Shown here: piece by piece, positions 4,020 to 32,000 of the stretch
Numbering within the stretch: the first letter of the stretch is position 1
Layout: every line of letters begins with the position of its first letter
Notes under the pieces: generated by a model
What the model was told of the DNA's origin: nothing
What the model saw: only the letters and a program-made list of their open reading frames with translations
Databases searched by the model: none
DNA from: Halomicronema hongdechloris C2206
Lineage (GTDB): Bacteria > Cyanobacteriota > Cyanobacteriia > Phormidesmidales > Phormidesmidaceae
Assembly (NCBI RefSeq): GCF_002075285.3
Contig: NZ_CP021983.2
Span: 330,001 to 362,000, forward strand
Direction: 5' to 3'
DNA length: 32,000 nt
Made by a program: the position numbers and the translations under genes

Positions 4020-6215
4020 ATGCGACCCCTATTCTCTGGCCTCCTGTTAACTGGATTGACCCTGTCAGCCCTATCGATGCTGCCCCCGCGGGCTCCTGGG
4101 GGAGATTTGACCGGCTCTGTTTCTGTGGCTCCGGCCCAGGCTCAGACCCGCGAAGATGAGCTTTACTATACCTTCTATGGTCAGCGCGTCCCCCTCACCT
4201 TGCGGCAAGATCAGATCGCCGTGGCTCTGAAATCTCAACCCAGTGGGGCCCGGGGAGGACCTTCGCCCTTTCAACAGCTGCAGCACAACTTGCTGGGTCG
4301 GCCTGCCGGGGGGCGTGCCGGTCGTGGCGGTGAGGCGGGGCCAGCCCTAGAGGTAACCCTGCGGCCCTTGGGAAATCGCTACGCGGTGATCGAACTGCCT
4401 GAGGTGTCTGCCGAGTTGAGGGCAGCGGTGCAGCAGCGGTTGCAACGGCCCTATGTGGAAGCTACCCTGCCGGTGCTCAGCCGCAGCGGCGAGGAGGACA
4501 CAATCATTCTGCCCAATGAAATTGTGGTCAGTTTCGAGCCCGATGCCCCTGCCAGCCAGGTGCAGCTGACCCTGAGTCGTTATGGCCTGGAAGAGGTGCG
4601 GCCCTTGCGCTTTAGCCAAAACCGCTATCTGGTCAGCCGTCGCGATGGGGCTGGGCTACAGGTGCTGAACGTAGCCAATCAACTGAATGGAGTAGCGGGG
4701 ATTCAGTCGGCTACCCCCAATTTTGTGCAGACGCTGCCCTACCGAGCCGTGCCCCAGAGTCTGGAGCAGCTTGCGATCGCATCTTCCCGGCCCAACCCCC
4801 CCTTAGATAATCTCTTGGCCCGGCTATCTGGCCCTCGGGACTGGCCCGTAGCCACCGATTTATTCCCCCTGCACTGGCACCTCGACAGCACCGCCTTTCG
4901 CGGCACCCGCCAACCCCGCACTGACATTCGGGTGACTGAGGCCTGGTCCCAAGGCAGCCAAGGAGAGGGCGTCGTCGTCGCCGTCATCGACAGCCTGATC
5001 CAGTGGGACCATCCTGATCTGGCCGATAACCTCTATGCCATTGCCGAAGACCAAGCCGGTCGTCTGCCCGGCGAAGTCCATGGCTGGGATTTCTCGAACC
5101 GGGACACCACCTGCCAGGCCGACCGTTGCGCTGTCGGTGACCCCGACACTCGCATCAGTGATGCCGAGTTAGACTTGGTGCGCACCGACTTTCAAAATAC
5201 CTTTACCCTCTCCGATGGCGAGCTGCTACAAACTTACCGGGGATTGGCCAATCGCATTGCTAATGCCCGTCCAAAGTGGTCACAGCGGCAGATTGCCAAT
5301 GTCATCCGTGGCTACATTCAGGGAGACATTATGGCCGAATTCCACGGCACCTGGTCTAGCGGGGTAGTGGCGGCCAACCCCGGTAGTGCTCGCGGTGCTG
5401 TCGGCGTGGCTCCAGAGGCCGAGATCTTGCCGGTACGGGTGTTTGGCCTCGGTGGCGAAATCACCGTGGCTGCCCTGGTGGAAGCCATTGGCTATGCTGC
5501 TGAGCGGGGGGTCGATGTGATCAACCTGAGCCTAGGGGGATTGCTACCGGATCGGGAGCTGACCGACCAGATTATGGCCGTGTTGGATGCCCACCCTGAC
5601 CTAGTGATTGTGGCCTCAGCTGGTAATGACAGCCTGGATGGTGTCGGGTTCCCGGCGGCGATTCCAGCGGTGATTTCCGTGGGGGCCACCACCCTCGAGG
5701 GCGAGCGTACCGTCTATAGCAGTTACGGAGGCGGCCTGGATGTGGTTGCTCCTGGCGGTGACATTAGCCAGGTGCCCATGTATGGCATTCTCACCACTGG
5801 CGGCACCTGGGTGCCTGGCTTCTGGCAAGGGATCGAGCAGCCTATCCACCCTTGGAGTTTAGGGTTGGATCCCTTGGGGCATTACGTACAGGTGCAGGGC
5901 ACCTCCTTCTCGGCTCCTGCCACTACTGGGACGGTAGCGCTGATGCTGGCAGCCAATGGCGATCTGACCCGAGCCCAGGTCAGCCAGATTTTACAGACCA
6001 CTGCCGATTACGAGGGATTGGCCCTGACCCAGTCAGAGATGAATCAGTATCGCCTGCAGGCAGCGGTGGGCCTAGGTACGGTGGTGGAGAACCAGGTGTT
6101 GCGACCCACGGGCATTTTTAGCTTTCCGGAGCCGATTTCCCCGGAGCAGTATTACTTCGGTGGGGGACTAGTGAATGCCGCCGCCGCTGTGGAGCAAGCC
6201 CGGAAACTACGCTGA
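4020..6215 (+). CDS. Secreted S8 (subtilisin-family) serine peptidase
   Basis: It has an N-terminal signal-like segment (MRPLFSGLLLTGLTLSALSML). The catalytic triad motifs are VVVAVIDSLI (Asp), EFHGTWSSGVVAA (His) and GTSFSAPATTGTVALM (Ser). Confidence 0.9.
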   Translation: MRPLFSGLLLTGLTLSALSMLPPRAPGGDLTGSVSVAPAQAQTREDELYYTFYGQRVPLTLRQDQIAVALKSQPSGARGGPSPFQQLQHNLLGRPAGGRAGRGGEAGPALEVTLRPLGNRYAVIELPEVSAELRAAVQQRLQRPYVEATLPVLSRSGEEDTIILPNEIVVSFEPDAPASQVQLTLSRYGLEEVRPLRFSQNRYLVSRRDGAGLQVLNVANQLNGVAGIQSATPNFVQTLPYRAVPQSLEQLAIASSRPNPPLDNLLARLSGPRDWPVATDLFPLHWHLDSTAFRGTRQPRTDIRVTEAWSQGSQGEGVVVAVIDSLIQWDHPDLADNLYAIAEDQAGRLPGEVHGWDFSNRDTTCQADRCAVGDPDTRISDAELDLVRTDFQNTFTLSDGELLQTYRGLANRIANARPKWSQRQIANVIRGYIQGDIMAEFHGTWSSGVVAANPGSARGAVGVAPEAEILPVRVFGLGGEITVAALVEAIGYAAERGVDVINLSLGGLLPDRELTDQIMAVLDAHPDLVIVASAGNDSLDGVGFPAAIPAVISVGATTLEGERTVYSSYGGGLDVVAPGGDISQVPMYGILTTGGTWVPGFWQGIEQPIHPWSLGLDPLGHYVQVQGTSFSAPATTGTVALMLAANGDLTRAQVSQILQTTADYEGLALTQSEMNQYRLQAAVGLGTVVENQVLRPTGIFSFPEPISPEQYYFGGGLVNAAAAVEQARKLR

Positions 6216-6468
6216 GTGGGCAGATAAAGTGACCATGGCCGCAGCCTCGGCGATGGATGATGCCTAGTCTGCGGCGATGAACGCCCAGGGCGATGGGGGC
6301 AATGGCGGGTAGGTGCTCAGTTGCGATCGCATGCCCCCCAGTCAGATCAACCCATACTCCCAGCCATCGACAGGATGACCGGCTCCTGCAACACCATCGC
6401 TCTCCAAGCATCGCCAACAGACAGGGGAATCAAATTGGTTATCGTGGGCGCCCTGGGCAATTTATCGA

Positions 6469-7950
6469 TTATTGTGAAATTGGCACAAAATCGTAGCCAG
6501 TGCCAGAACGCGATGGATTAGCCGGCTGCACCTCAACCAGCTGCAAACCCCCTCTGCGGTCACCGGCAGGAGTAAAGCGGATCGGCCCTTGCACCCCCTC
6601 AGCCTCAAAGGTGTCACTGGCCAAGGCTTGCTGAATACCGGTGCGGGAAGGGGCTTGAGCAATCGCCTCAATCAAAGCTTGGGACGCATCATAGGCCATT
6701 GCCGTGGCCCAATTGACATCGGCTCCCCAAAGTTGTCGGGACGCCTGGACAAAGGGGGCATTGGGATCGCCCTGAATATGCCACGGGATCGGCAGCACCA
6801 TACCAACCGCATTTTGCCCACTCACTTCTAACGTCTTGAGACCATATAGATTGCCGATATCCCCCACCAACTGCAACCGACGCTGATTGACGGTGACCAG
6901 CTGTAAGGCCCGATCGACAGTATCGGGCGAGGGGATTAAGGTCAACGCGCCAGCAGCTTGATCTAGGGCATCCTGAATCAAGCGCTGGGGTCTAAAGCCA
7001 GAGGTACTCAAATCCCATTCCCCCACCACTTGCCCACCTCGAGCAGAAACCGCCGACACAAACTCGGTTTTCAGAGACTGGCTGTATTGACTGGTGGGAT
7101 CGTGGGCAACAATCATATTCCTAATAGATGCTTGGCTCAGCAGATAATCAGCCATTGTTCTACCGACAATGGCATTATTGGGAATAATGCGAAAGACATA
7201 ATCGCTAATCCCTGAAATGTCAGGGCTGGTGCTGACTGGACTAATTAATACCAGCTGATTGTCTGCATAAATTGGTGCCACTGCCAGAGTAACTTGACTG
7301 CTCCAGTGTCCCATTACCGCCAATATGTCTGAATTAGTAGCCAATTCGGAGATCACTTGGCGGGCAATATTGGGATCATCATTATCATCCGCGACAATCA
7401 GCTTCAAAGGTTCACCATTAATCCCTCCCCTTTGATTGACTTCATGCTGAGCCTGGGCAAAGCCTCGCAGCATTTCGAGGGAAAAGGGAGCCGTATTGAC
7501 GTCAACAGGCACTAAAACAGCCACCTGATGAGCGGAGCCATCGCCAATCTCGGCATTATTCAGATAGATAAGCGTTTCAGGATCATTGCGATAGAGCTGT
7601 CTTGCCGATCTAAAAGCCTGCGCTGCCTGCTCAAACTCGCCATTGGCTAATGCTCGTACCCCCTGCTGTTTGGCGGAACCAAAGGCAGGATTTTCGATGC
7701 CCAACGCGTCGGTAGAAATGAGAATATGCTCACCAGCGCTAATCCGTGATTCTTCGGTAACCGCTGGGTCAGGAGTAGACCCTGAACTGGTAATAGACTC
7801 TGTGTCAGTCTCTCCTTGCCGATTAAAGAACCAATACCCACCCCCAACGATAGCTAAACCAATCAGAATATAAACAATGGGAGGGGGACCCTTTGAACGC
7901 CGAACCATAAATAAAAATTGTAATACTCTAAATCCTGCCTTAGCTGGCAA
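6469..7950 (-). CDS. Type-1 periplasmic binding fold (LivK-like) ABC substrate-binding protein with an N-terminal membrane anchor
   Basis: It has a TM anchor (PPIVYILIGLAIVGGGYWFF) and a short TPR-like segment. The body is Leu/Ile/Val-binding-type (VAVLVPV..., GINGEPLKLIVADDNDDP, ILAVMGHWSSQVTLAVAPIYADNQLVLISPVSTS). No cognate permease or ATPase is adjacent. The start may instead be the internal ATG at 7908. Confidence 0.7.
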   Translation of the reverse strand: MPAKAGFRVLQFLFMVRRSKGPPPIVYILIGLAIVGGGYWFFNRQGETDTESITSSGSTPDPAVTEESRISAGEHILISTDALGIENPAFGSAKQQGVRALANGEFEQAAQAFRSARQLYRNDPETLIYLNNAEIGDGSAHQVAVLVPVDVNTAPFSLEMLRGFAQAQHEVNQRGGINGEPLKLIVADDNDDPNIARQVISELATNSDILAVMGHWSSQVTLAVAPIYADNQLVLISPVSTSPDISGISDYVFRIIPNNAIVGRTMADYLLSQASIRNMIVAHDPTSQYSQSLKTEFVSAVSARGGQVVGEWDLSTSGFRPQRLIQDALDQAAGALTLIPSPDTVDRALQLVTVNQRRLQLVGDIGNLYGLKTLEVSGQNAVGMVLPIPWHIQGDPNAPFVQASRQLWGADVNWATAMAYDASQALIEAIAQAPSRTGIQQALASDTFEAEGVQGPIRFTPAGDRRGGLQLVEVQPANPSRSGTGYDFVPISQ

Positions 7951-8057
7951 TGATCATATGGCCGTTTGGTTGATCATGCAAATGCTTATCAGCTTGATAA
8001 GATCATAAGTCAGTGGTATTGCCAGCAAAATATAGTTGTTTTCCTGGAGTATAGCCA

Positions 8058-8080
8058 CTGCAACAGAAACGTTGTTGCAG
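8058..8080 (-). terminator. Hairpin immediately after the stop codon of the PspA-like gene
   Basis: CTGCAACA (8058-8065) pairs with TGTTGCAG (8073-8080) around a 7-nt loop. It abuts the stop codon at 8081-8083. There is no clear U-tract on the minus strand, so this is weak. Confidence 0.3.
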
Positions 8081-8848
8081 TTATTGACTCGAAGATTCGG
8101 GATCGATAAATGGCTTGTCATTCATGGCATTGGTCCTCTGCGGCGACTCAGTTAGCTCAGAATTTCGAAGTTTTTTTAACCGTTTTTCAACCTGATCATT
8201 CAATGTCATTTTTTCAATGTCAGCTTGCAACTGGTCCTGGGGATCCTCTGACAGCTCGGCATACGCCTCTTCATAAAATGACCGATCTTCAACGACCGCT
8301 TTGGCCGCTTCAAACTGTGATTGCGATGACTGGATGTTGAGACTGTCATTGGTCTCTGCTACCAGTCGCAACGCTTCATTGATTTCAGCCATATCCTTCA
8401 TATGCTGGAATTCAAATTTATAGGCCTCCAGCCGCATGCGTTCGCGATCGAGTTTTTCTTTAGACTGGTTGACTAATGCTTCAACTTGCCGCACTCGTTG
8501 CTCTAGCTGGGGTAGGAATCGCTCGATTTGTAAGGCACGGGTCATGGCCAGACGGGCTGCTTCTATATTACCTAACTGCTGCGCCAGAACGGCTTCATGC
8601 TCAGCATCTTGCAGTTCTTTGACTTTGATTTCGTATTTTTTCTTGGCCCGCTCGTAACTAGCTGCTTGGGTAGATACAGCCTGTGAGAGCTGCTGAACAG
8701 ACGTCTGCATGGAGCGTAGAGATTCTTCGGCCGCATTAACAGCACCTTGACTATCCGCTTCTATTGGTCTGCCCCACAACCAGTTCCAGCTAATGACTAC
8801 GACTCGACCCGCTCGCTCTCCCATCAGCCAGTAGACAAATTTCTTCAT
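8081..8848 (-). CDS. PspA/IM30-like coiled-coil protein
   Basis: 255 aa, almost entirely heptad-like helix. The segment ELQDAEHEAVLAQQLGNIEAARLAMTRALQ resembles the conserved PspA/IM30 helix (E.A..AL..G.EDLAR.AL). The N-terminus is atypically hydrophobic. Confidence 0.45.
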   Translation of the reverse strand: MKKFVYWLMGERAGRVVVISWNWLWGRPIEADSQGAVNAAEESLRSMQTSVQQLSQAVSTQAASYERAKKKYEIKVKELQDAEHEAVLAQQLGNIEAARLAMTRALQIERFLPQLEQRVRQVEALVNQSKEKLDRERMRLEAYKFEFQHMKDMAEINEALRLVAETNDSLNIQSSQSQFEAAKAVVEDRSFYEEAYAELSEDPQDQLQADIEKMTLNDQVEKRLKKLRNSELTESPQRTNAMNDKPFIDPESSSQ

Positions 8849-8944
8849 GGAGTTGCTCCTTATATTGTTTAAGTCGCTGAAGTTGTCGGCTGTTATTGTC
8901 TACTGTCGAGTTCCAGGTCAGAAGCTAACCAGCCTCACCCCAGG

Positions 8945-11467
8945 CTAAGCAGAAGGCTTTGCGGCTAAGGCCGCCTTGGGATAGGCGATACGCTTGTGGT
9001 TGTATTGCTGCCACACTTGCACGAAGATGTCGGCAATGATGCGCATATGCTCCCGGGTTAAGCCTGAATCCACCAGCTGATCATCTTTCCAACGAGCTCG
9101 CAAGATTCGGTTGACCATGGTTAGAGCCTCTTCAGGCGTCGCCTCCTTCAGAGAGCGCAACGCCGCTTCGCAAGAGTCGGCCAGCATGACAATCCCCGTT
9201 TCCGGTGATTGGGGAATGGGACCGTCATAGCGGAAGTCTTCTTCCCGCACCACCAAGGTAGCGTCCTCAGCCGCCCGTTCTTTAGCCTGATGATAGAAAT
9301 AGCTGATCAGCATGGTGCCCTGGTGTTCTGGGATAAAGGCCCGCAGTGCCTTGGGCAGGCGGCACTTGCGGGCCATGACAATGCCTTCGGTGACATGCTT
9401 CTTAATGATGGTGGCACTCAGCCAGGGATCGGCAATTTGATCGTGCTTATTGGGGCCTCCCATCTGATTTTCGATGAATCCCTGGGGATCATGCATCTTG
9501 CCGATGTCGTGGTAGAGGGTGCCAGCTCGGACCAGCTCCACATTGCAGCCCAGCACCCGGGCGGCTGCCTCGGCCAGGCTGGCCACGAACATGGTGTGTT
9601 GAAATGTGCCCGGCGCTTCTGATGACAATCGCTTCAGCAAGGGGCGGTTAGGGTTGGACAACTCCGCCAGGCGAATTGGGGTGACTAAATCGAAGACATG
9701 CTCTAAGTAGGGACTGAGGCCCAGGGCTAAGATACTGGACACCAGACCATAGGCCCCCTGTAGGGCAGAGCCAGTCAGAATGCCATACCAAGCCGATGGC
9801 GACACTGGATTGACAATCAGAGTCAGGATTAGGTAGACCCCACCCTGAGTTAAGCCAATGCCACCCCCTAATAGGGCCAGCTCCTCGCGCGATCGCAACC
9901 GAGACGCCACCACACTACCGACCAGGGCACCGACCACGCTAGCTACCAGCGGCACGCTACTGACATTAGTGCCGATAGGAACCAATATTCCCAGCAGAGC
10001 GATCACTGTAGCCCCTAGGGCCGACCCATAAAAGCTACCGACCAGTAAGCCCACTGCCGGCAGGCCATAGGCGGCACTACCAAACACCAACAGCCCGGCC
10101 GTTGTCATCACCATCAGGGTGATCAACACATAATCCCGTCGCCGTAATCCCCCATGGTAGATATGCTCTACCAGCAGAAATATAGAGACTCCCCCGGCCA
10201 CCAGAACGCCATAGCCCACAAACCCAAGCCAGTTAAACCGTCGCTGACTGAGATTGAAGTGGTCCAGCAGCACGAAGTCAGCCTGGCTGATGGTTTCACC
10301 GGCAGCTACGATGACTTCACCCTGTTGTACAGAGACGGTGACCGGCTCCACCGCTTCAGCAGCTTTTTCTGCTTGCAGGCGAGTGCGCTCAGGATCCTCG
10401 ATCAGATTTGGAGTAAGCACCGACGTCAGCATCTGAGTAGCCAGGGGGGTGGCCACTGACGGCACAGTCTCCTGAAGCTGTGTCCCAATGGCATCCTTCA
10501 ATACATCGGACGGTAATCCTGGGGAAATCCCCTGGGTGATCATGCGGTCAGTGACCTGGCGTAAGCCCGTCTTGGTAGCCTGCCATTCCTCTTCGCTGAG
10601 CTGTAGCAGGCGAGGACCGAACGGCTGATCCATCTGCTCGATGTCGGTCAAGGTGCGCTGATAACGGCGGCGAACAGACTCAAGTTGATCGCCAAGGGTT
10701 GCAAATGCCACTGACGACTCTTGTTGTCGTAGGGTAATCAGCTCTCGGGCCACCTGTTTAGGTTGTGGCGATAGGCTTTGAAATTCCTCATGCTGACGCT
10801 GATTACCCTCAGATGGCGAGGATGAGCCCGGTGCCTGCTCTAGCGGCCAAGACTGCACTAAGGACCAAATTGATTGCCACTCCTCTTGGTCAGCGGATTG
10901 GATATAGCGTTGCGCCGCTGTGGATAAGCGATGGGTGGGTAGAAAGGGAAGGGTTCCGGCTTGCTGTCTCAGCCGTTCCCCTTGCTGAAGGAGCTGGTCA
11001 AGCGACTGCAGCATTGCCTCATTAACGGCTGGATCCAGCATCAGCACCCGCAGTACCCCATTCCGGGCTGCCATTTGCTGGGCCTCTGTAGACTCCGTAT
11101 CGACGACGGTGGCATCCTTGGGAGCAATGATGGTTTCCGGAGCCTGACTGTCCACCTGCAGCCCAGGTTGGTTGTAGAAGCGCTGCCCCAGTCCTGCTGT
11201 CAGGGATAACACTGCCACGGCAAAAATCAGCCGGGGTTGCTTGAGGCGACCTGACTGCCGTCTTGCCCGTCGCGGCGGTGGCGGGGAAGAGGTGTCTGAT
11301 GGACTAATGGGCACGGCAGGAGAAAACCGATGTAACATGCGGTGAGTGAAGCGAGAAGTGGCAGATCTGGACCCCAAGGACCTCCGGAATGAAACGCGGA
11401 GAGAGTTGGTAGATGGCTTCCACCGCTGTTCCACTTGGCCGATTAAGAGCCGGAGTAACTTCATCAT
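8945..11467 (-). CDS. 7TM-receptor HD-domain phosphohydrolase (7TMR-HDED / PgpH-like)
   Basis: It has a large extracytoplasmic N-domain and then about 7 TM helices. The C-terminal HD domain shows LYHDIGKMHDPQGFIENQ and HQGTMLISYFYHQA. The true start could be an internal Met (for example MLHRFSP). Confidence 0.85.
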   Translation of the reverse strand: MMKLLRLLIGQVEQRWKPSTNSLRVSFRRSLGSRSATSRFTHRMLHRFSPAVPISPSDTSSPPPPRRARRQSGRLKQPRLIFAVAVLSLTAGLGQRFYNQPGLQVDSQAPETIIAPKDATVVDTESTEAQQMAARNGVLRVLMLDPAVNEAMLQSLDQLLQQGERLRQQAGTLPFLPTHRLSTAAQRYIQSADQEEWQSIWSLVQSWPLEQAPGSSSPSEGNQRQHEEFQSLSPQPKQVARELITLRQQESSVAFATLGDQLESVRRRYQRTLTDIEQMDQPFGPRLLQLSEEEWQATKTGLRQVTDRMITQGISPGLPSDVLKDAIGTQLQETVPSVATPLATQMLTSVLTPNLIEDPERTRLQAEKAAEAVEPVTVSVQQGEVIVAAGETISQADFVLLDHFNLSQRRFNWLGFVGYGVLVAGGVSIFLLVEHIYHGGLRRRDYVLITLMVMTTAGLLVFGSAAYGLPAVGLLVGSFYGSALGATVIALLGILVPIGTNVSSVPLVASVVGALVGSVVASRLRSREELALLGGGIGLTQGGVYLILTLIVNPVSPSAWYGILTGSALQGAYGLVSSILALGLSPYLEHVFDLVTPIRLAELSNPNRPLLKRLSSEAPGTFQHTMFVASLAEAAARVLGCNVELVRAGTLYHDIGKMHDPQGFIENQMGGPNKHDQIADPWLSATIIKKHVTEGIVMARKCRLPKALRAFIPEHQGTMLISYFYHQAKERAAEDATLVVREEDFRYDGPIPQSPETGIVMLADSCEAALRSLKEATPEEALTMVNRILRARWKDDQLVDSGLTREHMRIIADIFVQVWQQYNHKRIAYPKAALAAKPSA

Positions 11468-12784: not shown

Positions 12785-13693
12785 ATGATACGTGCCTGTT
12801 CAACTGACGTGCGATGGCCCCAAGCCGGTCGAAAGCCATCGCATCATTGCCACGCCTCCATCGATCGGCGTCAAATCTGGCCCATGCTTCTGGCTACGCT
12901 AGTTGGGGTTGCCGGTGGCGATCTATTCACGGCGCAGGCTAGCCAAGCCATAGAGATGGCACCAGCAGGTTCCGTAACTGGCGAGCCACAGCTAACTGCC
13001 CTGGGCCAAAATAAAGACCTATCACTGCGATTAGCTCGGATCACTCGGCCCACCCTACAACTTGGTAGCACTGGGGAGACGGTGCAAGAGTTGCAAACTG
13101 TTTTACTCTTTCTGGGCTACTATTCAGGTCCTGTAGATGGTCAATATCTGGATGCCACCGAAGAGGCTGTGCGTCAGTTTCAGGCGGCAGCGGGTCTGAA
13201 TCCTGACGGTGTCGTCGGTCCAGCTACTTGGAATCAGCTCTTTCCATCCCCACCCCGGCAAGCCAATCCACCTAGTACGACAACCTCAGCCTCGACTGTC
13301 CCTGAGACTAGTTCAGTGACTCCGGTAGCACCGGCAGAAGCTACCAATCCGACCGCCGCATCGGAAGCCTCATCAACTGCGGCAGAGCCTACCGTTGCCC
13401 AGACAACATCAGAGGATTCGGAAGAGGTTGCGGAACCTGCAGGGTCGGAAAAGCCGCCAGAGTCATCCGGTCAGGGTCCTGTGGAGTTGCCTGTGTTGAG
13501 ATCAGGGTTAGCTGGTCCAGCCGTTGCTCGATTGCAGGAGCGCCTTAGGGTATTGGGAGTCTATGCCGGAGTTATCGATGGCATCTTTGGTCGCCAAACC
13601 GAAGCAGCGGTTCGACAAATTCAGCGTCGCTATCAGCTACAGGTAGACGGCATTGTCGGTCCAGCGACTTGGCAAGCCCTATTAGCCAATTAA
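12785..13693 (+). CDS. Protein with two peptidoglycan-binding (PG_binding_1) domains joined by a Pro/Ser/Thr/Ala-rich linker
   Basis: Two copies of the motif are present. The first is LQLGSTGETVQELQTVLLFLGYYSGPVDGQYLDATEEAVRQFQAAAGLNPDGVVGPATWNQL. The second is LRSGLAGPAVARLQERLRVLGVYAGVIDGIFGRQTEAAVRQIQRRYQLQVDGIVGPATWQALL. The start is uncertain, with an alternative ATG at 12884. Confidence 0.8.
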   Translation: MIRACSTDVRWPQAGRKPSHHCHASIDRRQIWPMLLATLVGVAGGDLFTAQASQAIEMAPAGSVTGEPQLTALGQNKDLSLRLARITRPTLQLGSTGETVQELQTVLLFLGYYSGPVDGQYLDATEEAVRQFQAAAGLNPDGVVGPATWNQLFPSPPRQANPPSTTTSASTVPETSSVTPVAPAEATNPTAASEASSTAAEPTVAQTTSEDSEEVAEPAGSEKPPESSGQGPVELPVLRSGLAGPAVARLQERLRVLGVYAGVIDGIFGRQTEAAVRQIQRRYQLQVDGIVGPATWQALLAN

Positions 13694-15366: not shown

Positions 15367-16461
15367 ATGGCATTTATTCTTACCTTTCTCGGCAAGGGCG
15401 GCAGTGGGCGTAGCACCCTTGCGATCGCAACTGCCCAGAAATTTGCCCGGCAGGGCAAGGCAGTCTTGTTAGCAACTCAGGACGCTGGACCTGTCGTGGG
15501 AACTCAGTTGGGGCAATCGCTAACCGCCACGCCCCAGTCGGTCGAAACCAACCTATGGGCCATGCAATTGCGATCGGCTACCCTGCTGGAGCAGAGTTGG
15601 GATGCTGTCAAGGCTCTAGAAGCCCAATACCTGCGCACCCCCTTTTTCAAAGAGGTCTACGGCCAGGAGCTCGGGGTCTTACCCGGCATGGACGAGGCCT
15701 TAGCCCTAGATGCTCTGCGACGCTATGATGCCAGCGGTGACTACGACGTCATTGTCTACGATGGCGCTGGGGATCAAACCACCCTGCGCATGTTTGGGTT
15801 ACCTGAGATCCTGGATTGGTATCTGCGCCGCTTTCGCCAGGTCTTCGAAGCCTCAGATTTAGGCAAAGCCTTATCGCCCTTTATTCAGCCCATCGCCAAC
15901 GCTGTCCTAGCCGGGGATTGGGCAGGGCGACTAGAACAACCCAGCCAACAGGCTGCCGATCTCTTAGGACAGGGCCGCACTGCCATCAACGATCCCACCC
16001 GGGTATTGGCTTGCCTAGTCACGACTCCCGAGGCTGCCGCCGTGGCTACGGCCCGTCACCTGTGGGGAGGGGCTCAACAAATCGGCTTGGCCGTAGGGGC
16101 GGTCTTGGTTAACCAGACTACGGCTGGAACCCTCGAACCAGAGGTCTTTGCTCCCTTGTCGAACCATGCCATCCCGGCCCTAGCTACCCAGGATTGGGCA
16201 GCCTTAATCGACGCTCTGCCTGACTTTAACCAATTGGCTCAATCAGCCCCTCGTCCTATAGTTATTGATGTCCCGGCCAGACGGGTCAGTTTGTTCTTGC
16301 CGAGTTTCGATAAGACCCAGGTGACCTTGACCCAATATGGTCCAGAGGTCACGGTAGAAGCGGGCGATCAACGGCGCAATCTGCTGCTGCCAGAAGAATT
16401 ACGAGGTCGACCGGTGCAGGGCGCTAAATTTCAAGATCGTTCCCTAGTGATTTCGTTCTAG
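15367..16461 (+). CDS. ArsA/Get3-family P-loop ATPase
   Basis: It has a deviant Walker A (FLGKGGSGRSTLAIATA) and a DTAP-like switch region (VIVYDGAGDQTTLR). The C-terminal beta-rich domain looks HSP20-like. Confidence 0.75.
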   Translation: MAFILTFLGKGGSGRSTLAIATAQKFARQGKAVLLATQDAGPVVGTQLGQSLTATPQSVETNLWAMQLRSATLLEQSWDAVKALEAQYLRTPFFKEVYGQELGVLPGMDEALALDALRRYDASGDYDVIVYDGAGDQTTLRMFGLPEILDWYLRRFRQVFEASDLGKALSPFIQPIANAVLAGDWAGRLEQPSQQAADLLGQGRTAINDPTRVLACLVTTPEAAAVATARHLWGGAQQIGLAVGAVLVNQTTAGTLEPEVFAPLSNHAIPALATQDWAALIDALPDFNQLAQSAPRPIVIDVPARRVSLFLPSFDKTQVTLTQYGPEVTVEAGDQRRNLLLPEELRGRPVQGAKFQDRSLVISF

Positions 16462-16583: not shown

Positions 16584-17579
16584 ATGGCTGACCCTCAGCT
16601 ACCCACAGATTCACAGCAGGCCGCGTCTAACCGCAGCGGCCAGACTCGCCAACTACTCGGCATGAGAGGGGCCCAAGCAGGTGAGACCTCCATCTGGAAG
16701 ATTCGTCTGCAGTTGATGAAACCCATCACCTGGATTCCTCTGATTTGGGGAGTTGTCTGTGGATCGGCTTCCTCCGGTAACTTTAGCTGGACAGTAGACA
16801 ATGTGCTGGTCGCCCTGGCCTGTATGCTGCTGTCAGGCCCGTTACTGGCAGGCTATACCCAGACCCTCAACGACTTCTACGATCGAGAGATCGATGCCAT
16901 CAATGAGCCCTACCGCCCCATCCCCTCAGGAGCGATCTCTGTCCCTCAAGTAGTCGCCCAAATCTTGATATTACTTGGTGCTGGCATCGCCCTAGCCTAT
17001 GGCCTCGATCAGTGGGCTGGCAATACATTTCCGACCATTACGGCAACTGCCGTCGGTGGCTCCCTGCTGTCATATATCTATTCGGCTCCTCCCCTGAAGC
17101 TGAAGAAAAACGGTTGGCTGGGAAACTATGCGTTGGGAGCTAGCTACATCGCTCTGCCTTGGTGGGCTGGTCATGCCCTCTTTGGCGATCTCAACCTGAC
17201 CATCATCGGGCTGACCCTGTTTTATAGCCTAGCCGGGTTGGGCATCGCCGTTGTGAATGACTTCAAGAGCGTAGAGGGTGATCGGCAGTTAGGACTGCAA
17301 TCCCTACCCGTCATGTTTGGGGTCACCGCAGCCGCCTGGATTTGCGTGCTGATGATCGATGTCTTTCAGGGGGGAATCGCCGCCTATCTGATCGGAGTGC
17401 ACCAGAATGCCTATGCTGTGCTCCTGATTCTGCTAATCATTCCCCAAATCACCTTTCAAGACATGTACTTTCTCAGGGCTCCCCTAGAGAATGATGTGAA
17501 ATATCAAGCCAGTGCCCAACCATTTCTGGTGTTGGGCATGTTGGTTACGGCCCTGGCCCTAGGAAATGCTGGTGTTTGA
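16584..17579 (+). CDS. chlG: Chlorophyll synthase
   Basis: UbiA-family prenyltransferase with WKIRLQLMKPITWIPLIWGVVCG and the NDFYDREIDAINEPYRPIPSGAIS motif typical of ChlG. The start is placed at the ATG at 16584. Confidence 0.92.
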   Translation: MADPQLPTDSQQAASNRSGQTRQLLGMRGAQAGETSIWKIRLQLMKPITWIPLIWGVVCGSASSGNFSWTVDNVLVALACMLLSGPLLAGYTQTLNDFYDREIDAINEPYRPIPSGAISVPQVVAQILILLGAGIALAYGLDQWAGNTFPTITATAVGGSLLSYIYSAPPLKLKKNGWLGNYALGASYIALPWWAGHALFGDLNLTIIGLTLFYSLAGLGIAVVNDFKSVEGDRQLGLQSLPVMFGVTAAAWICVLMIDVFQGGIAAYLIGVHQNAYAVLLILLIIPQITFQDMYFLRAPLENDVKYQASAQPFLVLGMLVTALALGNAGV

Positions 17580-27488: not shown

Positions 27489-28322
27489 ATGTCCCCAGAG
27501 CCTCCAGAACTAATTATCGAAGCCGGCCGCACCGAAGCCCAGTACTGGCGAGACCTCTGGCGCTATCGCGAGCTATTTTACTTTCTGGCCTGGCGGGATA
27601 TCTTGGTGCGCTACAAGCAAACCGCCGTCGGCGTCGCCTGGGCACTGCTGCGGCCCTTTCTGACCATGGTGGTGTTTACGGTGGTCTTCGGCCGCCTGGC
27701 CAAGTTGCCCACAGAGGGAGATGCCCCTTACCCGATTCTGGTGTTTGCGGCCATGTTGCCCTGGCAATTTTTCGCCAATGCCCTAACCGAGTGCAGCAAC
27801 AGCCTGATTCAAAATGCCAACCTGATTGCAAAGGTCTATTTCCCTCGATTGGTGGTGCCTACCAGTGCCGTCATCGTCAGCTTCGTCGACTTTTTGATCT
27901 CGGGGATCATTTTGCTAGGGCTGATGGCCTGGTACGCAGCCGTGCCCTCCTGGCGGATTATCACCTTGCCGGGGTTCATCGCCATCGCCTTCGCGGCGGC
28001 CATGGGGGCTGGCCTCTGGTTAGCGGCCCTAAACGTGCAGTATCGCGACTTTCGCTACGTGGTGCCGTTTCTGGTGCAGTTTGGCCTCTACATCTCGCCG
28101 GTGGGCTTCAGCAGCAGCATCGTGCCCCAACAGTGGCGGCTGTTGTATTCTCTCAATCCCATGGTGGGGGTGATTGACGGCTTTCGCTGGGCCATCATCG
28201 GCGGTGATGTGCAGCTCTACTGGCCCGGCTTCTTGCTGTCCTTGCTGCTGGTGGCCGCATTGCTCTTCAGCGGCATCCTCTATTTTCGCCACATGGAGCG
28301 CACCTTTGCCGATATCATTTGA
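27489..28322 (+). CDS. ABC-2 type (Wzm/TagG-like) polysaccharide export permease
   Basis: 277 aa with six TM segments. The N-terminus is typical of the family (YWRDLWRYRELFYFLAWRDILVRYKQTAVGVAWALLRPFLTM) and is followed by KVYFPR. No partner ATPase gene follows. Confidence 0.85.
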   Translation: MSPEPPELIIEAGRTEAQYWRDLWRYRELFYFLAWRDILVRYKQTAVGVAWALLRPFLTMVVFTVVFGRLAKLPTEGDAPYPILVFAAMLPWQFFANALTECSNSLIQNANLIAKVYFPRLVVPTSAVIVSFVDFLISGIILLGLMAWYAAVPSWRIITLPGFIAIAFAAAMGAGLWLAALNVQYRDFRYVVPFLVQFGLYISPVGFSSSIVPQQWRLLYSLNPMVGVIDGFRWAIIGGDVQLYWPGFLLSLLLVAALLFSGILYFRHMERTFADII

Positions 28323-28351
28323 TGCCTTAGAAGATTGATGCCTTAGAAGAT
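28320..28351. repeat. Perfect 16-bp tandem duplication (TGATGCCTTAGAAGAT x2) starting at the permease stop codon
   Basis: Read directly. Copy 1 is at 28320-28335 and copy 2 at 28336-28351. Confidence 0.95.
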
Positions 28352-28584: not shown

Positions 28585-29550
28585 CTAGCAATCCAGGGGA
28601 CTTCTTACCCCACGGCCACCCCGATTCAGAACGTGGGTGTAGATCATGGTGGTTTTTACATCCTTATGCCCCAGCAGCTCCTGCACGGTGCGAATGTCGT
28701 AACCATCTTCCAGCAGATGAGTGGCAAAACTGTGACGAAACGTGTGGCAACTGACGTGTTTGGACACTTTTGCCTGGCGAACTGCTCGCTTGATCGCCCG
28801 CTGCAAGCCACTTTCGTGCAGATGGTGACGTCTTGTGACACCACTGCGAGGATCTTGAGAGAATCGTTCTGCCGGAAAGACAAATTGCCAGATCCACTCA
28901 CGGTCGGCATGAGGATACTTGCGCTCCAGCGCAAAGGGTAGATACACCGAGCCATGTCCTTGTGCCAAATCTTGATGGTGCAATTGTCGAACACCATGCA
29001 GATGGTCTTTGAGATCTGCGCTCACACTGGTAGGCAGCATTGTTCGGCGGCTCTCTCCACCTTTTGTATCTCTGACCGTTATCTGTTGTTGGGCAAAGTC
29101 GAGATCTTTGACCCGTAGCCGTAGGGCTTCGTTTAACCGCAAGCCACTGCCATAAAGCAGCTTGGCAACTAGCTGATAACTGCCGCTCAGATTTTGCAGC
29201 ACTGAGTTGACTTCATCAGGGGTGAGCACGGTCGGTAAATGGCGCGATCGCTTTGCCCGCACGGCATTGATATCCACCCCTAGATCTTGCTTCAACACCT
29301 GACGATAGAGAAACACGACCGCATTCAGCGCCTGATTCTGCGTTGAAGCCGAGACCTTACCCACCACTGCTAGATGGGTCAAAAACGCCTCTAACTCAGC
29401 TTCTCCCATCTCAGCGGGATGCCGCTTTTGATGGAACAAGATGTAGCGGCGAATCCAATAAACGTAGGTTTGCTCGGTGCGATAGGAATAGTGCTTTAGC
29501 CGGATTTGGTCTCGGACTTGGTCCAGTAGTTTGCGAGGTTGAGTTTCCAT
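28585..29550 (-). CDS. intI: Integron integrase (tyrosine recombinase, IntI family)
   Basis: Catalytic residues are in context: [16 protein letters not shown] (Arg), [12 protein letters not shown] (His-x-x-Arg), [14 protein letters not shown] (His, Tyr). The IntI-specific insertion [50 protein letters not shown] is also present. The start is placed at METQPRK (ATG ending at 29550). The ORF track extends to 29601. Confidence 0.92.
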
Positions 29551-29619
29551 CAGTGGTAGATGCAGTACATACGTATTTACTTTGACGTATGTTTGGCGCA
29601 ATATCCTGAGAAAACGCGG

Positions 29620-29781
29620 CAGCTATACTGAAGCTTTCAATATATCTACCCAATATAAACGTACTATATGGACAGCTTGCAGCCTATCCGCCGAATTGGG
29701 CGAGATATACTGCGATTAATCCATATATCTGCCCCAAACGGGGTAGATATACTGAAGGAGTCGATCTAATAAGAGTTGGAC
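29620..29781 (+). other. Candidate attI recombination region with crossover core GTTGGAC (29775-29781)
   Basis: It lies between the intI start and the first cassette. Five copies of a ~10-12 bp motif alternate in orientation and precede a GTTRRRY match. TTGGAC is the exact complement of the R'' core of cassette 1. Confidence 0.55.
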
Positions 29782-30630
29782 AGCGCTCGAACACGATCGT
29801 GAAACGCACAGTGCCCGATGAGAGAAGTGCTATCTGAACACCTAGCCACGTTCATCCGGTCCCTCCCGGAGAAGCGCGAGTACGCCCGCGACGATCTTCT
29901 CGTTCCTGCGCTGAAGGTCGCCGAGGATGCCGACAAGGGGCTTGCCGTGTACGACGCTCCGTTCGGCTGGGGCAACCAAGAAGCGCGTGTGGCCCTGATT
30001 GGCGTGACGCCGGGTTTCACCCAGATGCAGATTCTCTATCGCGTAGTGCGGAGGCACCTCCTGTTGGGTGCGAGCCCCGAAGACGCTTGCAGGTTGGCCA
30101 AGTACGAAGCCAGCTTTGGTGGCACCATGCGCGGGAATCTCGTTCGGATGCTGGACGAGCTCGGGGTGCCGGAACTCCTCGAGGTCGCATCCACCGCCGA
30201 TCTCTTTGGTTCCAGTTCCCATCTTCTGCACACCACTTCGGCTGTTCGGTACCCGACGTTCCTCCACGGGCAGAACTACACTGGCAGTCAGCCGCGGCTC
30301 GTGAGGTCCGCCTTCTTGATGCGATACGTTCGGGACGTTCTTGCGCCGGAGCTGTCCCGGCTCCATGCTGCAGTCTTCGTTCCACTCGGCAAGAGCGTCG
30401 CCGAGGCCTTGGAGCTACTGGAGACCGAGCAGCGCATCCCGGCTGGTCGAACGCTACATGGATTCCCACATCCATCGGGCGCGAACGGTCACCGCGCGCG
30501 GCAATTCGAGAAGGGGAAGCCCGCGATGAGGCGGCGGTTCGAGGAGATCTTGTGTGGAGGTGCCTCGGCGGGCGCTGTCCAACAACAGCATGCAGCGGAC
30601 GGCGCTGCGCGCCGCCGCTGATGCCACACG
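29776..30630 (+). mobile_element. Integron gene cassette 1 (855 bp)
   Basis: It starts with TTGGAC after the attI G and ends with the G of GTTAGGC. Its own R'' (GTCCAAC, 30577-30583) is the reverse complement of G+TTGGAC. Confidence 0.75.
29818..30621 (+). CDS. Protein with a uracil-DNA glycosylase superfamily-like fold, specificity unknown
   Basis: 267 aa with GC-rich codon usage. VALIGVTPGFTQ resembles UDG motif A (G-x-x-PG, compare GINPG and GEAPG). LHGFPHPSGANG resembles motif B (HPS). The stop codon lies inside attC. There is no obvious SD. Confidence 0.5.
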   Translation: MREVLSEHLATFIRSLPEKREYARDDLLVPALKVAEDADKGLAVYDAPFGWGNQEARVALIGVTPGFTQMQILYRVVRRHLLLGASPEDACRLAKYEASFGGTMRGNLVRMLDELGVPELLEVASTADLFGSSSHLLHTTSAVRYPTFLHGQNYTGSQPRLVRSAFLMRYVRDVLAPELSRLHAAVFVPLGKSVAEALELLETEQRIPAGRTLHGFPHPSGANGHRARQFEKGKPAMRRRFEEILCGGASAGAVQQQHAADGAARRR

Positions 30631-30636
30631 TTAGGC
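30577..30636 (+). other. attC site of cassette 1 (60 bp)
   Basis: R'' is GTCCAAC (30577-83) and R' is GTTAGGC (30630-36). An inner stem pairs 30588-30605 with 30609-30624. G30592 and A30599 are unpaired on the R'' side, and there is an unpaired spacer between the R and L boxes. Confidence 0.8.
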
Positions 30637-31139
30637 GGCGCTCCGCGCACTCGGAGGTACGACCATGGAGCTCGTATTCGCCCTACTCGTTGTCGCGATT
30701 CTCGCTAGCCTGCCTGCAGCCGTGCTCGTTGTTGGCGTCTTCACAGCTCACGCCAGGCCCGACTCGCCTCTGCTTCGGCACTGGCGGCTCGTTGCCACCG
30801 TCGGTTTCTCGGCCTGGGCCTTGCTCACCCTGGTCTCGCACCTCTCCGACGCCCCTGGCTACACGGGCATCGGTTCCGGTCTTGGCATTCTCCTTTTGGT
30901 GTTCGTCTTTATCGCCCGCTCCAGAGCTTCCACTCTCTCCTCGGGCACGGCATAGCCGCCCAGGGTGCATCGCGCCGCCTAACAAGGCGCTGCAGCTGAC
31001 GAGCGCCACGGGAGTCGAATCGGTCCAACGCCGCCCAAAGCGCGCTCCGCGCGCAGGGCGGCTCGTGCCAGCTGGCGGCCACCTCCTGTGGCACAATCGG
31101 GGCTCCACCAGCGGCGCTCGCAGCTGAGCGCCTGATCCG
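30631..31139 (+). mobile_element. Integron gene cassette 2 (509 bp)
   Basis: It starts with TTAGGC. Its own R'' (GCCTAAC, 30977-83) is the reverse complement of G+TTAGGC. It ends with the G of GTTAGCT. Confidence 0.7.
30665..30955 (+). CDS. Small hypothetical membrane protein (3 predicted TM helices)
   Basis: GGAGG at 30653-57 lies 7 nt upstream of the ATG. The 96-aa product has hydrophobic stretches LVFALLVVAILASLPAAVLVVGVF, LVATVGFSAWALLTLV and GIGSGLGILLLVFVFIA. Confidence 0.55.
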   Translation: MELVFALLVVAILASLPAAVLVVGVFTAHARPDSPLLRHWRLVATVGFSAWALLTLVSHLSDAPGYTGIGSGLGILLLVFVFIARSRASTLSSGTA

Positions 31140-31145
31140 TTAGCT
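30977..31145 (+). other. attC site of cassette 2 (169 bp, long variable centre)
   Basis: R'' is GCCTAAC (30977-83) and R' is GTTAGCT (31139-45). A 21-bp stem pairs 30986-31007 with 31113-31132, with G30992 and A30999 unpaired. The bulges have the same identity and 6-bp spacing as in attC1. Confidence 0.7.
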
Positions 31146-31246
31146 GTCTGCCTACAGCAAGCATCTACCTGTGGACGCTCCTGGAAGTTTGGGGCATCTT
31201 AGACTTATGCCTTAATCAGTTACCGCTGGAATGGAGTAGCTAGAGA

Positions 31247-32000
31247 ATGAGTAGCTCTGCTTACGAAGGGTTCAACGAAGAGAGCTTCTTCGACCGTGTT
31301 GAAGCTCAGTTTGTTAAGAAAGCCCCTAATTTGTCTCAGACGCTTAACATTGCCGTCATTGGAAAAGTCAGTGCGGGGAAAAGTTCCTTAATTAATGCCT
31401 TGCTTAAGCTGAGTCGTCGGCAAGCGTTAGAAATTGCTAAAGTTGGTGCCACATCAGGAGTAACTACTGATCTAACAATCCTCAAGCTAGATGAAAAAGT
31501 ACATCTTGTCGATTCCCCTGGGCTTGATGATGTTCGTACTGAGAATAGCGAGCTAACAAAGAAGTTTCTTAAGCATATAGATGTTGGTATATTTGTAGTA
31601 ACTGGCTCCTCAGATTCCTCACAAAAGAAAAACTTAGATGATTTGCGACAGCATTGCGATGCTATTTTTGTCGTCCTAAATAAAATCGATGAATGGGATG
31701 ACTTAGATCCATCTGTCTTAGAAGATATTATTCAACAGTGGAAGACTGATCTTGAAGTAGAGAAAATATACCCAACTTGTGCAAAGGGTTACGATCCTAA
31801 AAGTCGTCTCCCTACAATGGATATCAGAGGTGTTGCAAAACTCCGGAATGACATTGGGGATTTCCTTGAAAAAAAAGGTAAAGACCTATTGTTAGCTAGG
31901 CACATGGCCCAGAAACAATCTCATGCGGTTAAAATTATTGCAGTAGCTTTAGCCGCTGTAGCTGGAGAAGCTTTTATACCTGGTAGTGCCATTTATATTA
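31247..32000 (+). CDS. P-loop GTPase (50S-ribosome-binding-GTPase/HSR1-like domain) with a hydrophobic DUF697-like C-terminal region; 3' end outside the window
   Basis: The frame is open from the ATG at 31247 to the window end, so it is absent from the ORF track because no stop is reached. GTPase motifs are G1 GKVSAGKS, G3 DSPG and G4 NKID. It is followed by AVKIIAVALAAVAGEAFIPGSAIYI. GGAG lies 10 nt upstream. A counted line is about 37% G+C. Confidence 0.8.
   Translation, partial: MSSSAYEGFNEESFFDRVEAQFVKKAPNLSQTLNIAVIGKVSAGKSSLINALLKLSRRQALEIAKVGATSGVTTDLTILKLDEKVHLVDSPGLDDVRTENSELTKKFLKHIDVGIFVVTGSSDSSQKKNLDDLRQHCDAIFVVLNKIDEWDDLDPSVLEDIIQQWKTDLEVEKIYPTCAKGYDPKSRLPTMDIRGVAKLRNDIGDFLEKKGKDLLLARHMAQKQSHAVKIIAVALAAVAGEAFIPGSAIYI

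Follow-up and report, generated by a model that had tools for sequence, protein, structure and literature searches.

Cyanobacteria are one of the phyla for which integrons have been listed (Cury et al. 2016, PMC4889954), and a Cyanobacteria-specific attC model has been built (Ghaly et al. 2021, PMC8352920). The action of the integrase IntI on attC sites is established integron biology (family literature, e.g., PMC2727003, PMC5027507), and phage-defence genes have already been reported in integron cassettes (bioRxiv 10.1101/2024.07.02.601719; PMC12614218). Here, we describe a stretch of 32,000 nucleotides of Halomicronema hongdechloris C2206 (contig NZ_CP021983.2, positions 330,001 to 362,000), which is called the window below and whose first letter is position 1. 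Based on the sequence, positions 28585-32000 of the window almost certainly represent the proximal end of a chromosomal integron comprising intI, attI and at least three cassettes. Cassettes 1-3 share one orientation, cassettes 1 and 2 each end in an attC site, and intI is divergent from attI. The features are as follows.

Positions 28585-29550, minus strand: intI, integron integrase of 321 amino acids, with the likely start ATG at 29550, in an open reading frame (ORF) spanning 28585-29601.
Positions 29551-29781, plus strand: intI-attI intergenic region; TCTAATAAGAG|TTGGAC closes the attI core, and the crossover is G29775|T29776.
Positions 29623-29651, 29698-29735 and 29740-29775: three attI repeat units of about 30-38 nt each, imperfect inverted repeats TATACTG...ATATATCT.
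Positions 29776-30630, plus strand: cassette 1, 855 bp; the ORF at 29818-30621 encodes 267 amino acids, a predicted divergent protein of the uracil-DNA glycosylase (UDG) superfamily.
Positions 30577-30636, plus strand: attC1, 60 nt; boxes GTCCAAC (R'') and GTTAGGC (R'); the '' arm has two extrahelical bases.
Positions 30631-31139, plus strand: cassette 2, 509 bp; the ORF at 30665-30955 encodes 96 amino acids, a predicted small membrane protein.
Positions 30977-31145, plus strand: attC2, 169 nt; boxes GCCTAAC (R'') and GTTAGCT (R'); the L stem has 20 bp, and the terminal structure is long and variable.
Positions 31140-32000, plus strand: start of cassette 3, which runs past the window; the ORF from 31247 to beyond 32000 encodes the N-terminal 251 amino acids of a 382-amino-acid GTPase.

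In common with the cyanobacterial chromosomal integrons already described (PMC4889954, PMC8352920), the locus has an IntI of the same clade, the same attI motif and intI-attI spacing and, in cassette 3, an attC of 86 nt, which was read from a copy of this cassette in another genome (see below). It differs from them in attC1 and attC2, whose lengths of 60 and 169 nt are accompanied by a G+C of 0.68-0.70, while the median in the relatives is 0.52. The superintegron of Vibrio cholerae is also chromosomal, has an IntI whose additional helix makes contact with the extrahelical bases, and carries toxin-antitoxin-like cassette pairs, a likeness found here in the UPF0175 and DUF3368 genes of cassette 3 in its other copy. 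The attC sites of the Vibrio array (Vibrio cholerae repeats, VCRs) are highly uniform, whereas those of the present locus are heterogeneous. With the class 1 mobile integrons the locus shares the attC plan R''-spacer-L''...L'-spacer-R', as well as heterogeneous attC sites and mixed G+C. Unlike in them, neither a Tn402/Tn21 context nor a 3' conserved segment nor resistance genes were found in the examined part, and the attI here carries three inverted-repeat units instead of DR1/DR2 and a simple site.

The IntI protein was an exact match to ASC69404.1/WP_080814162.1, named in RefSeq "integron integrase [Halomicronema hongdechloris]"; an alternative start of the gene is TTG at 29601. It contains the domains PF00589 and PF13495 and scored 485.1 bits with the integron integrase profile TIGR02249 (cutoff 265). 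Residues 9-319 were aligned with the V. cholerae integrase VchIntIA (PDB 2A3V) over 311 residues (E 4e-97). In this alignment the integron-specific insertion, about 35-40 residues between patches II and III in IntI proteins, was gap-free across a segment of 40 residues, and the catalytic motifs GSGLRL, KGG, HTFRHSF, LGH and MIYTHV matched their VchIntIA counterparts. These scores also bear on the possibility that the locus is no integron at all and that a Xer-like recombinase lies here beside GC-rich palindromes (terminators or REP-like elements, that is, repetitive extragenic palindromes). Such a view can draw on the fact that attC sites broadly look like hairpins and on nothing further, and the XerC and XerD profiles gave only 134-138 bits against cutoffs of 330-335.

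The second line of evidence is provided by the attC sites. Folded as single-stranded DNA, the bottom strands of attC1 (-19.7 kcal/mol, z = -2.8) and attC2 (-55.7 kcal/mol, z = -4.0) adopt the canonical attC plan, in which an R helix of 7 bp is separated from the L stem by a spacer of unpaired bases. In both sites this stem has two extrahelical bases, which are 6 nt apart and lie on the '' arm. The attC of aadA7 has the same arrangement, namely extrahelical bases on the '' arm 6 nt apart, the second being a top-strand A followed by C (...GCNGAC...). In a crude structural scan of the whole window, attC1 and attC2 reached -0.33 kcal/mol per nt, and all other candidates were at -0.18 or weaker.

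Two attC covariance models, R1 and R2, were made from sites adjoining related intI genes in other genomes, with the window excluded. The relatives of IntI comprised more than 543 stretches in species-representative genomes, and the best 80 loci were examined. The seeds for R1 were 17 attC sites from a structural scan of these 80 loci (about 1 Mb). Their arms were trimmed, since the alignment of full-length attC sites by MAFFT misaligned the 3' arms. In the resulting seed alignment 88.5% of the positions were paired, compared with 25-40% in shifted registers. Over the 80 loci R1 found 66 sites at E < 0.01, all 66 within 305 kb upstream of intI and 65 of them on the cassette strand, which is divergent from intI; no site was found in the 620 kb downstream of intI. 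R1 is thus specific for cassette arrays. R2 was rebuilt from the 66 R1 matches, long sites included. The site attC1 scored 64.4 bits with R1 (E 7e-15) and 60.6 bits with R2 (E 1e-13), and attC2 scored 39.1 bits with R2 (E 3.5e-8), with ends identical to those drawn by eye. R1 missed attC2, most likely due to a hit-length limit too short for 169 nt. The opposite strand of attC1 gave only 12.7-19.9 bits under R1 and R2, and opposite strands under R2 remained below 20 bits. No significant R2 match was found in the host DNA (28.5 kb of the window), where the best score was 15 bits (E 0.055), and Rfam gave no match above the gathering threshold over the window. That best host match is a 24-nt palindrome at 17514-17537, GCCCAAC...GTTGGGC (15-16 bits, E 0.04-0.06 with R1 and R2); it has R-box-like ends and no L stem, and is probably due to chance.

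The attI site was defined by comparing the window with 22 related integrons, anchored at the first TAATA...GTT after intI. The motif ...GGAAAnTTTC..TCTAATAAnnnG|TTAG.. was kept in these 22 integrons, and conservation collapsed about 7 nt past G|TT. In the window the end of attI is GTTGGAC at 29775-29781. Between the start of intI and the crossover there are 225 nt in the window, and many relatives have 221-236 nt. Upstream of the crossover are the three repeat units, the last of which holds it. Repeat units were also present in the intI-attI spacers of the relatives (L001-L042), with a period of about 40 nt and with more units in some. The repeat motif varies by integron, being TATACTG/ATATATCT in the window, TATACGGAAAnTTTCCGTATA in L009 and L015, and GGATAAY in L082. 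By analogy with DR1/DR2 of attI1, the repeat units are probably arrays of accessory IntI-binding sites. The -10-like hexamers TATACT at 29624, 29707 and 29749 lie inside these repeats and are candidate elements of the platform promoter Pc. The G+C of the attI region is 0.422.

Based on the known systems, the following course of recombination may be suggested. IntI would bind the folded bottom strand of attC via the extrahelical bases and would cut the bottom-strand AAC between A and C (AA|C), which equals G|TT on the top strand. Recombination of attC with attI would insert a cassette, and recombination of attC with attC would excise a cassette as a circle. The promoterless cassettes nearest attI would be expressed from Pc. 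For the present locus, current recombination, the promoter Pc and its control are inferred.

Several points weigh against the reading as a chromosomal integron. A scan of the plus strand at 29300-29800 revealed no consensus sigma-70 promoter facing the cassettes, although such a scan covers cyanobacterial promoters poorly. The seed attC sites were chosen by rules similar to those of the first-pass annotation, which had been made from the sequence without database searches; this introduces partial circularity, offset by the control of sites upstream and downstream of intI. Finally, the R' box of attC2, GTTAGCT, is one base off GTTRRRY, because TTAGCT belongs to cassette 3.

The first-pass annotation had proposed that the integron platform is complete and carries a cassette array, and this was borne out by the integrase profile, the attC model, the attI motif in 22 relatives and the G|TT breakpoints described below. 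It had recognised tyrosine-recombinase residues and an integron-type extra segment in the minus-strand ORF; the catalytic motifs align with those of VchIntIA, and the segment is present and ungapped against 2A3V. It had suggested a check with an integron-specific profile; of such profiles, TIGR02249 was matched well over its cutoff. The two palindromes it had described as bounded by RYYYAAC and GTTRRRY cores are present, with the single departure in attC2 R', and both were accepted by a covariance model built from other genomes.

The third line of evidence is that the cassettes are found elsewhere in other surroundings. All cassette boundaries fall at G|TT. The 5' ends TTGGAC of cassette 1 and TTAGGC of cassette 2 are exact complements of their own R'' boxes, GTCCAAC and GCCTAAC. 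A metagenome scan with the GTPase fragment gave two contigs, L081 and L082, that were 99.2% identical to positions 31139-32000 of the window, starting at the G of G|TTAGCT. Upstream of this breakpoint L082 carries another attI and another intI (about 66% nucleotide identity, truncated). In two further contigs, L110 and L111, cassette 3 was present at 99.4% identity, there following the attC of a cassette for a 1706-amino-acid helicase. The junction of cassette 3 reads G|TTAGCT in all three contexts, after attC2 in the window, after attI in L082 and after the helicase attC in L110, and its identity in the two contexts outside the window ranges over 98.5-99.4%. L110 is a cyanobacterial-looking contig of a metagenome-assembled genome (MAG), with 17 sites of the highly iterated palindrome HIP1 in 21 kb. 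The TTAGCT start of cassette 3 predicts AGCTAAC as its R'' box, and this box was found in the L110 attC at 13502-13587 (86 nt, 57.3 bits); the contigs L081 and L082 stop before the attC of cassette 3.

Cassette 1 has a homologue (P0012, 69% amino acid identity) in L107-L109, where it lies between attC matches of 22.9, 48.8 and 53.6 bits. Its attC is 60 nt long and 90% identical to attC1, and its coding sequence is 73% identical. The 5' homology of the window with the L107 cassette begins at G|TTGGACAGCG. GyrB encoded on the contig of this homologue was 85-91% identical to GyrB of MAGs labelled Steroidobacteraceae (Gammaproteobacteria), and the nearest organism-named homologue of cassette 1 belongs to Gemmatimonadaceae (74% identity). 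H. hongdechloris C2206 is placed in the order Nodosilineales, and in its genome the cassette 1 protein exists in three identical copies, ASC69405, ASC69414 and ASC72403. ASC69414 lies nine accessions past ASC69405, presumably in the same array, and ASC72403 is about 3000 accessions away. Thus, by accession order, cassette 1 would recur within the array and once elsewhere in the genome, which suggests that the cassette was duplicated and that the genome has a further attC cluster or integron at another place.

The comparison of these loci shows that cassettes have moved historically at exactly G|TT breakpoints. The variability expected of related loci was found, with the same cassettes in different contexts and with breakpoints at the predicted crossover. 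Together with the profile scores and the strand-specific attC matches, these breakpoints rule out the reading as a Xer-like recombinase beside unrelated hairpins, to which we assign a negligible probability.

The movement may, however, belong to the past. It could be supposed that the platform and cassettes are real and no longer recombine here, the cassettes having become fixed genes. The result of the promoter scan would agree with this, and decay is seen in related loci. The minus-strand intI of L082 (4-936) diverges after HSFATHL and has no catalytic Tyr, so that this platform is probably inactivated. The attC of L107 at 6757-6816 has a degenerate R' box, GCTAGGC, and the cassette 1 homologue there may no longer be excisable; decay of such sites thus occurs. 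In the window, by contrast, intI is full length with all catalytic motifs kept, and attC1 and attC2 keep the R boxes and extrahelical bases. Moreover, the identity of 99.4% of cassette 3 to its copy elsewhere points to recent movement, and the three identical copies of the cassette 1 protein in one genome also speak against fixation. We consider a fossil integron unlikely.

The chromosomal setting was assessed from the intI side. The integron is located on a contig of 5.58 Mb, and its neighbours on that side, a PBP2-like gene and the ABC-2 permease ASC69403, have host-like G+C and HIP1 density. No transposase ORF was seen between these neighbours and intI, this interval being the only part of the window screened for transposition genes. 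Between the ABC-2 permease gene and the 3' end of intI, a sequence of 16 nt is exactly duplicated in tandem at 28320-28351 (TGATGCCTTAGAAGAT twice), and this duplication begins at the stop codon of the permease. The ABC-permease and PBP2 neighbours were found in none of the loci of the relatives. The accession order is ASC69403 (ABC permease), ASC69404 (IntI), ASC69405 (cassette 1), ASC69406 (cassette 2), ASC69407 (GTPase, 382 amino acids) and ASC69409 (YbjN-like protein). This order implies an array of at least ten genes, the DNA itself having been read to position 32000, and suggests that the source genome carries cassette 3 as the multi-gene unit known from L110.

Two properties are expected of a sedentary integron. 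The first, a place in the chromosome with no transposon or plasmid attached, was observed from the contig and the intI-side neighbours; the second, a large array of homogeneous host-typical attC sites, was not, the sites measuring 60, 169 and about 86 nt, compared with 84-92 nt in relatives. The differing lengths and G+C of the attC sites, as well as the lack of shared synteny downstream of intI in the relatives, could be explained by a mobile integron carried into the chromosome on a transposon, a plasmid or an integrative and conjugative element. On the other hand, the intI-side neighbours are host-like and have no transposase ORF between them and intI, the closest relatives of intI (among the best 80 of more than 543) are all chromosomal genes of other cyanobacteria, and intI contains a HIP1 site. 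A mobile integron is therefore very improbable here, and a chromosomal integron is preferred.

The HIP1 site within intI lies at 29244-29251 and is not common to the four closest intI genes. The first-pass annotation took it as a sign of long residence in this genome; the site itself was confirmed, and the inference is plausible and weak, as it relies on a single site. Outside intI, all 12 HIP1 sites fell in the host part; attI and the cassettes (2.4 kb), where about one was expected at the host rate, had none, so that this absence is only weakly informative. The G+C was 0.566 in the host part, 0.523 in intI, 0.633 in cassette 1, 0.670 in cassette 2 and 0.415 in the part of cassette 3 within the window. 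Earlier counts made by hand were exact (34/60 at 15421-15480, 45/60 at 30601-30660 and 22/60 at 31561-31620). The idea drawn from them, that the array is a mosaic of foreign DNA, is supported by the sharp shifts in G+C, the odd attC lengths and the homologue of cassette 1 in a gammaproteobacterial array.

With respect to attC length, 34 of 35 sites of cyanobacterial relatives measured 84-92 nt (median 87, G+C 0.52), and sites of non-cyanobacterial relatives measured 59-131 nt with a median G+C of 0.64. With the 86-nt attC of cassette 3 included, the G+C of the three sites of the array ranges over 0.58-0.70. Hence, attC1 and attC2 are atypical for cyanobacteria, and the attC of cassette 3 is typical. 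Because attC1 and attC2 are atypical and cassette 1 has a homologue in Steroidobacteraceae, the data support the view that cassettes 1 and 2 were imported from a pool of high-G+C cassettes outside the cyanobacteria. Chloroflexi were also considered as the origin of these cassettes; this was rejected as too specific, since it rested on attC length and the arm identities barely differ between groups.

The functions of the cassettes were assessed by homology and structure prediction. The cassette 1 protein has 1426 homologues. It matched the Pfam family PF03167 (UDG) with E 0.005, below the cutoff of that family, and a PDB sequence search gave nothing useful. Its AlphaFold2 model had a mean predicted local distance difference test score (pLDDT) of 91.7, and the top 27 fold matches in PDB all belonged to the UDG superfamily (UdgX, SMUG1, TDG, UNG, MUG), although these matches were weak (E 4e-3 to 0.5, template modelling (TM) score 0.3-0.58). 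The motifs G(V/I)TPG and HPSGANGH were invariant or nearly so in 39 homologues; they would correspond to motif A (GxxPG) and motif B (HPS...) of the UDG fold. Based on the model and these motifs, the protein is predicted to be a divergent member of the UDG superfamily. In cassette 2 the ORF has GGAGG 7 nt upstream of ATG as a ribosome-binding site, and its product has three hydrophobic segments. The sole match of this protein among 5.8 billion proteins was itself, ASC69406.1. PADLOC gave no matches for cassettes 1 and 2, and a tblastn search of the cassette proteins against the 80 intI loci found nothing.

In L110, cassette 3 measures 3,688 bp and contains five genes, encoding a GTPase, a Trypsin_2 protease with a double zinc ribbon, a YbjN-like protein, UPF0175 and DUF3368. 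The GTPase has the domains MMR_HSR1 and Dynamin_N, and with PADLOC it gave a weak match to LeoA (E 6e-17). The protease domain showed a weak, partial likeness to RT-Protease, and the DUF3368 protein was a strong match to the candidate system PDC-S70. The helicase of 1706 amino acids in L110 is encoded at 4678-9899, with strong PADLOC matches to TmtA (E 3e-53) and MkoA (E 3e-39). Since an 87-nt attC comes after its gene, this is apparently a single-gene cassette of more than 5 kb, which lies immediately before the copy of cassette 3. In another contig, L088, a homologue of the GTPase gene is directly followed by three tandem attC sites about 90 nt apart (1375-1460, 1554-1640 and 1734-1819), which may be empty or ORF-less cassettes.

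A possible regulatory element was found upstream of intI. On the minus strand, the sequence AATACGTATGTACT at 29564-29577 precedes the ATG of intI by 14-27 nt. It differs by one mismatch from the cyanobacterial LexA-box consensus RGTACNNNDGTWCB and lies inside the 18-nt palindrome AGTACATACGTATTTACT; it is a candidate LexA box. Across the window, LexA-box matches occurred at chance level (7 found, 6.95 expected). Among 75 relatives, 9 had a box with no more than one mismatch in the 90 nt that precede intI, compared with 1.2% of random 100-nt segments, and several of these boxes were placed 32-38 nt upstream of intI. This positional enrichment of LexA-like boxes is suggestive, and SOS control of cyanobacterial integrases could be one reading of it. 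A broader proposal would join an active integron and a cross-phylum cassette pool with intI under LexA and with cassette 3 as an undescribed anti-phage module travelling between cyanobacterial integrons, formed by the LeoA-like GTPase, the trypsin-like protease, the YbjN-like protein and the UPF0175/DUF3368 pair matching PDC-S70. We regard this combination as tentative and rather doubtful as a whole.

The occurrence of related integrons was estimated from the best 80 intI loci. By record titles, about 50 of these 80 matches are cyanobacterial, with Chloroflexota next, and their amino acid identities are 64-79% (Leptolyngbya, Nodosilinea, Pseudanabaena, Phormidesmis, Thermosynechococcaceae, Gloeobacterales and others). 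The first-pass annotation had regarded integrons as uncommon in cyanobacteria; this view is contradicted by these relatives and by surveys that already list such integrons (PMC4889954, PMC8352920). Among filamentous cyanobacteria, integrons of this kind are in fact common. A contig end lies no more than 900 nt from intI in 35 of the 80 related loci on the side of the cassettes and in 7 on the opposite side. Such a bias would be expected from arrays that differ within a population or from assemblies broken at repeats. In the library searched, no paper was found that joins H. hongdechloris and integrons, and the present array appears to be undescribed, though its integrase is already correctly named in RefSeq.

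General knowledge of integrons is unchanged by this locus, given that annotation and the cyanobacterial integrons already catalogued. What it provides is a cleanly delimited integron, with exact attI and attC coordinates, in a chlorophyll f-producing cyanobacterium. Of most interest are the five-gene cassette of 3.7 kb common to three contexts and the cassette shared with a gammaproteobacterium. The array may thus serve as a natural example for cassette traffic into cyanobacteria and as a source of candidate defence or DNA-repair genes.

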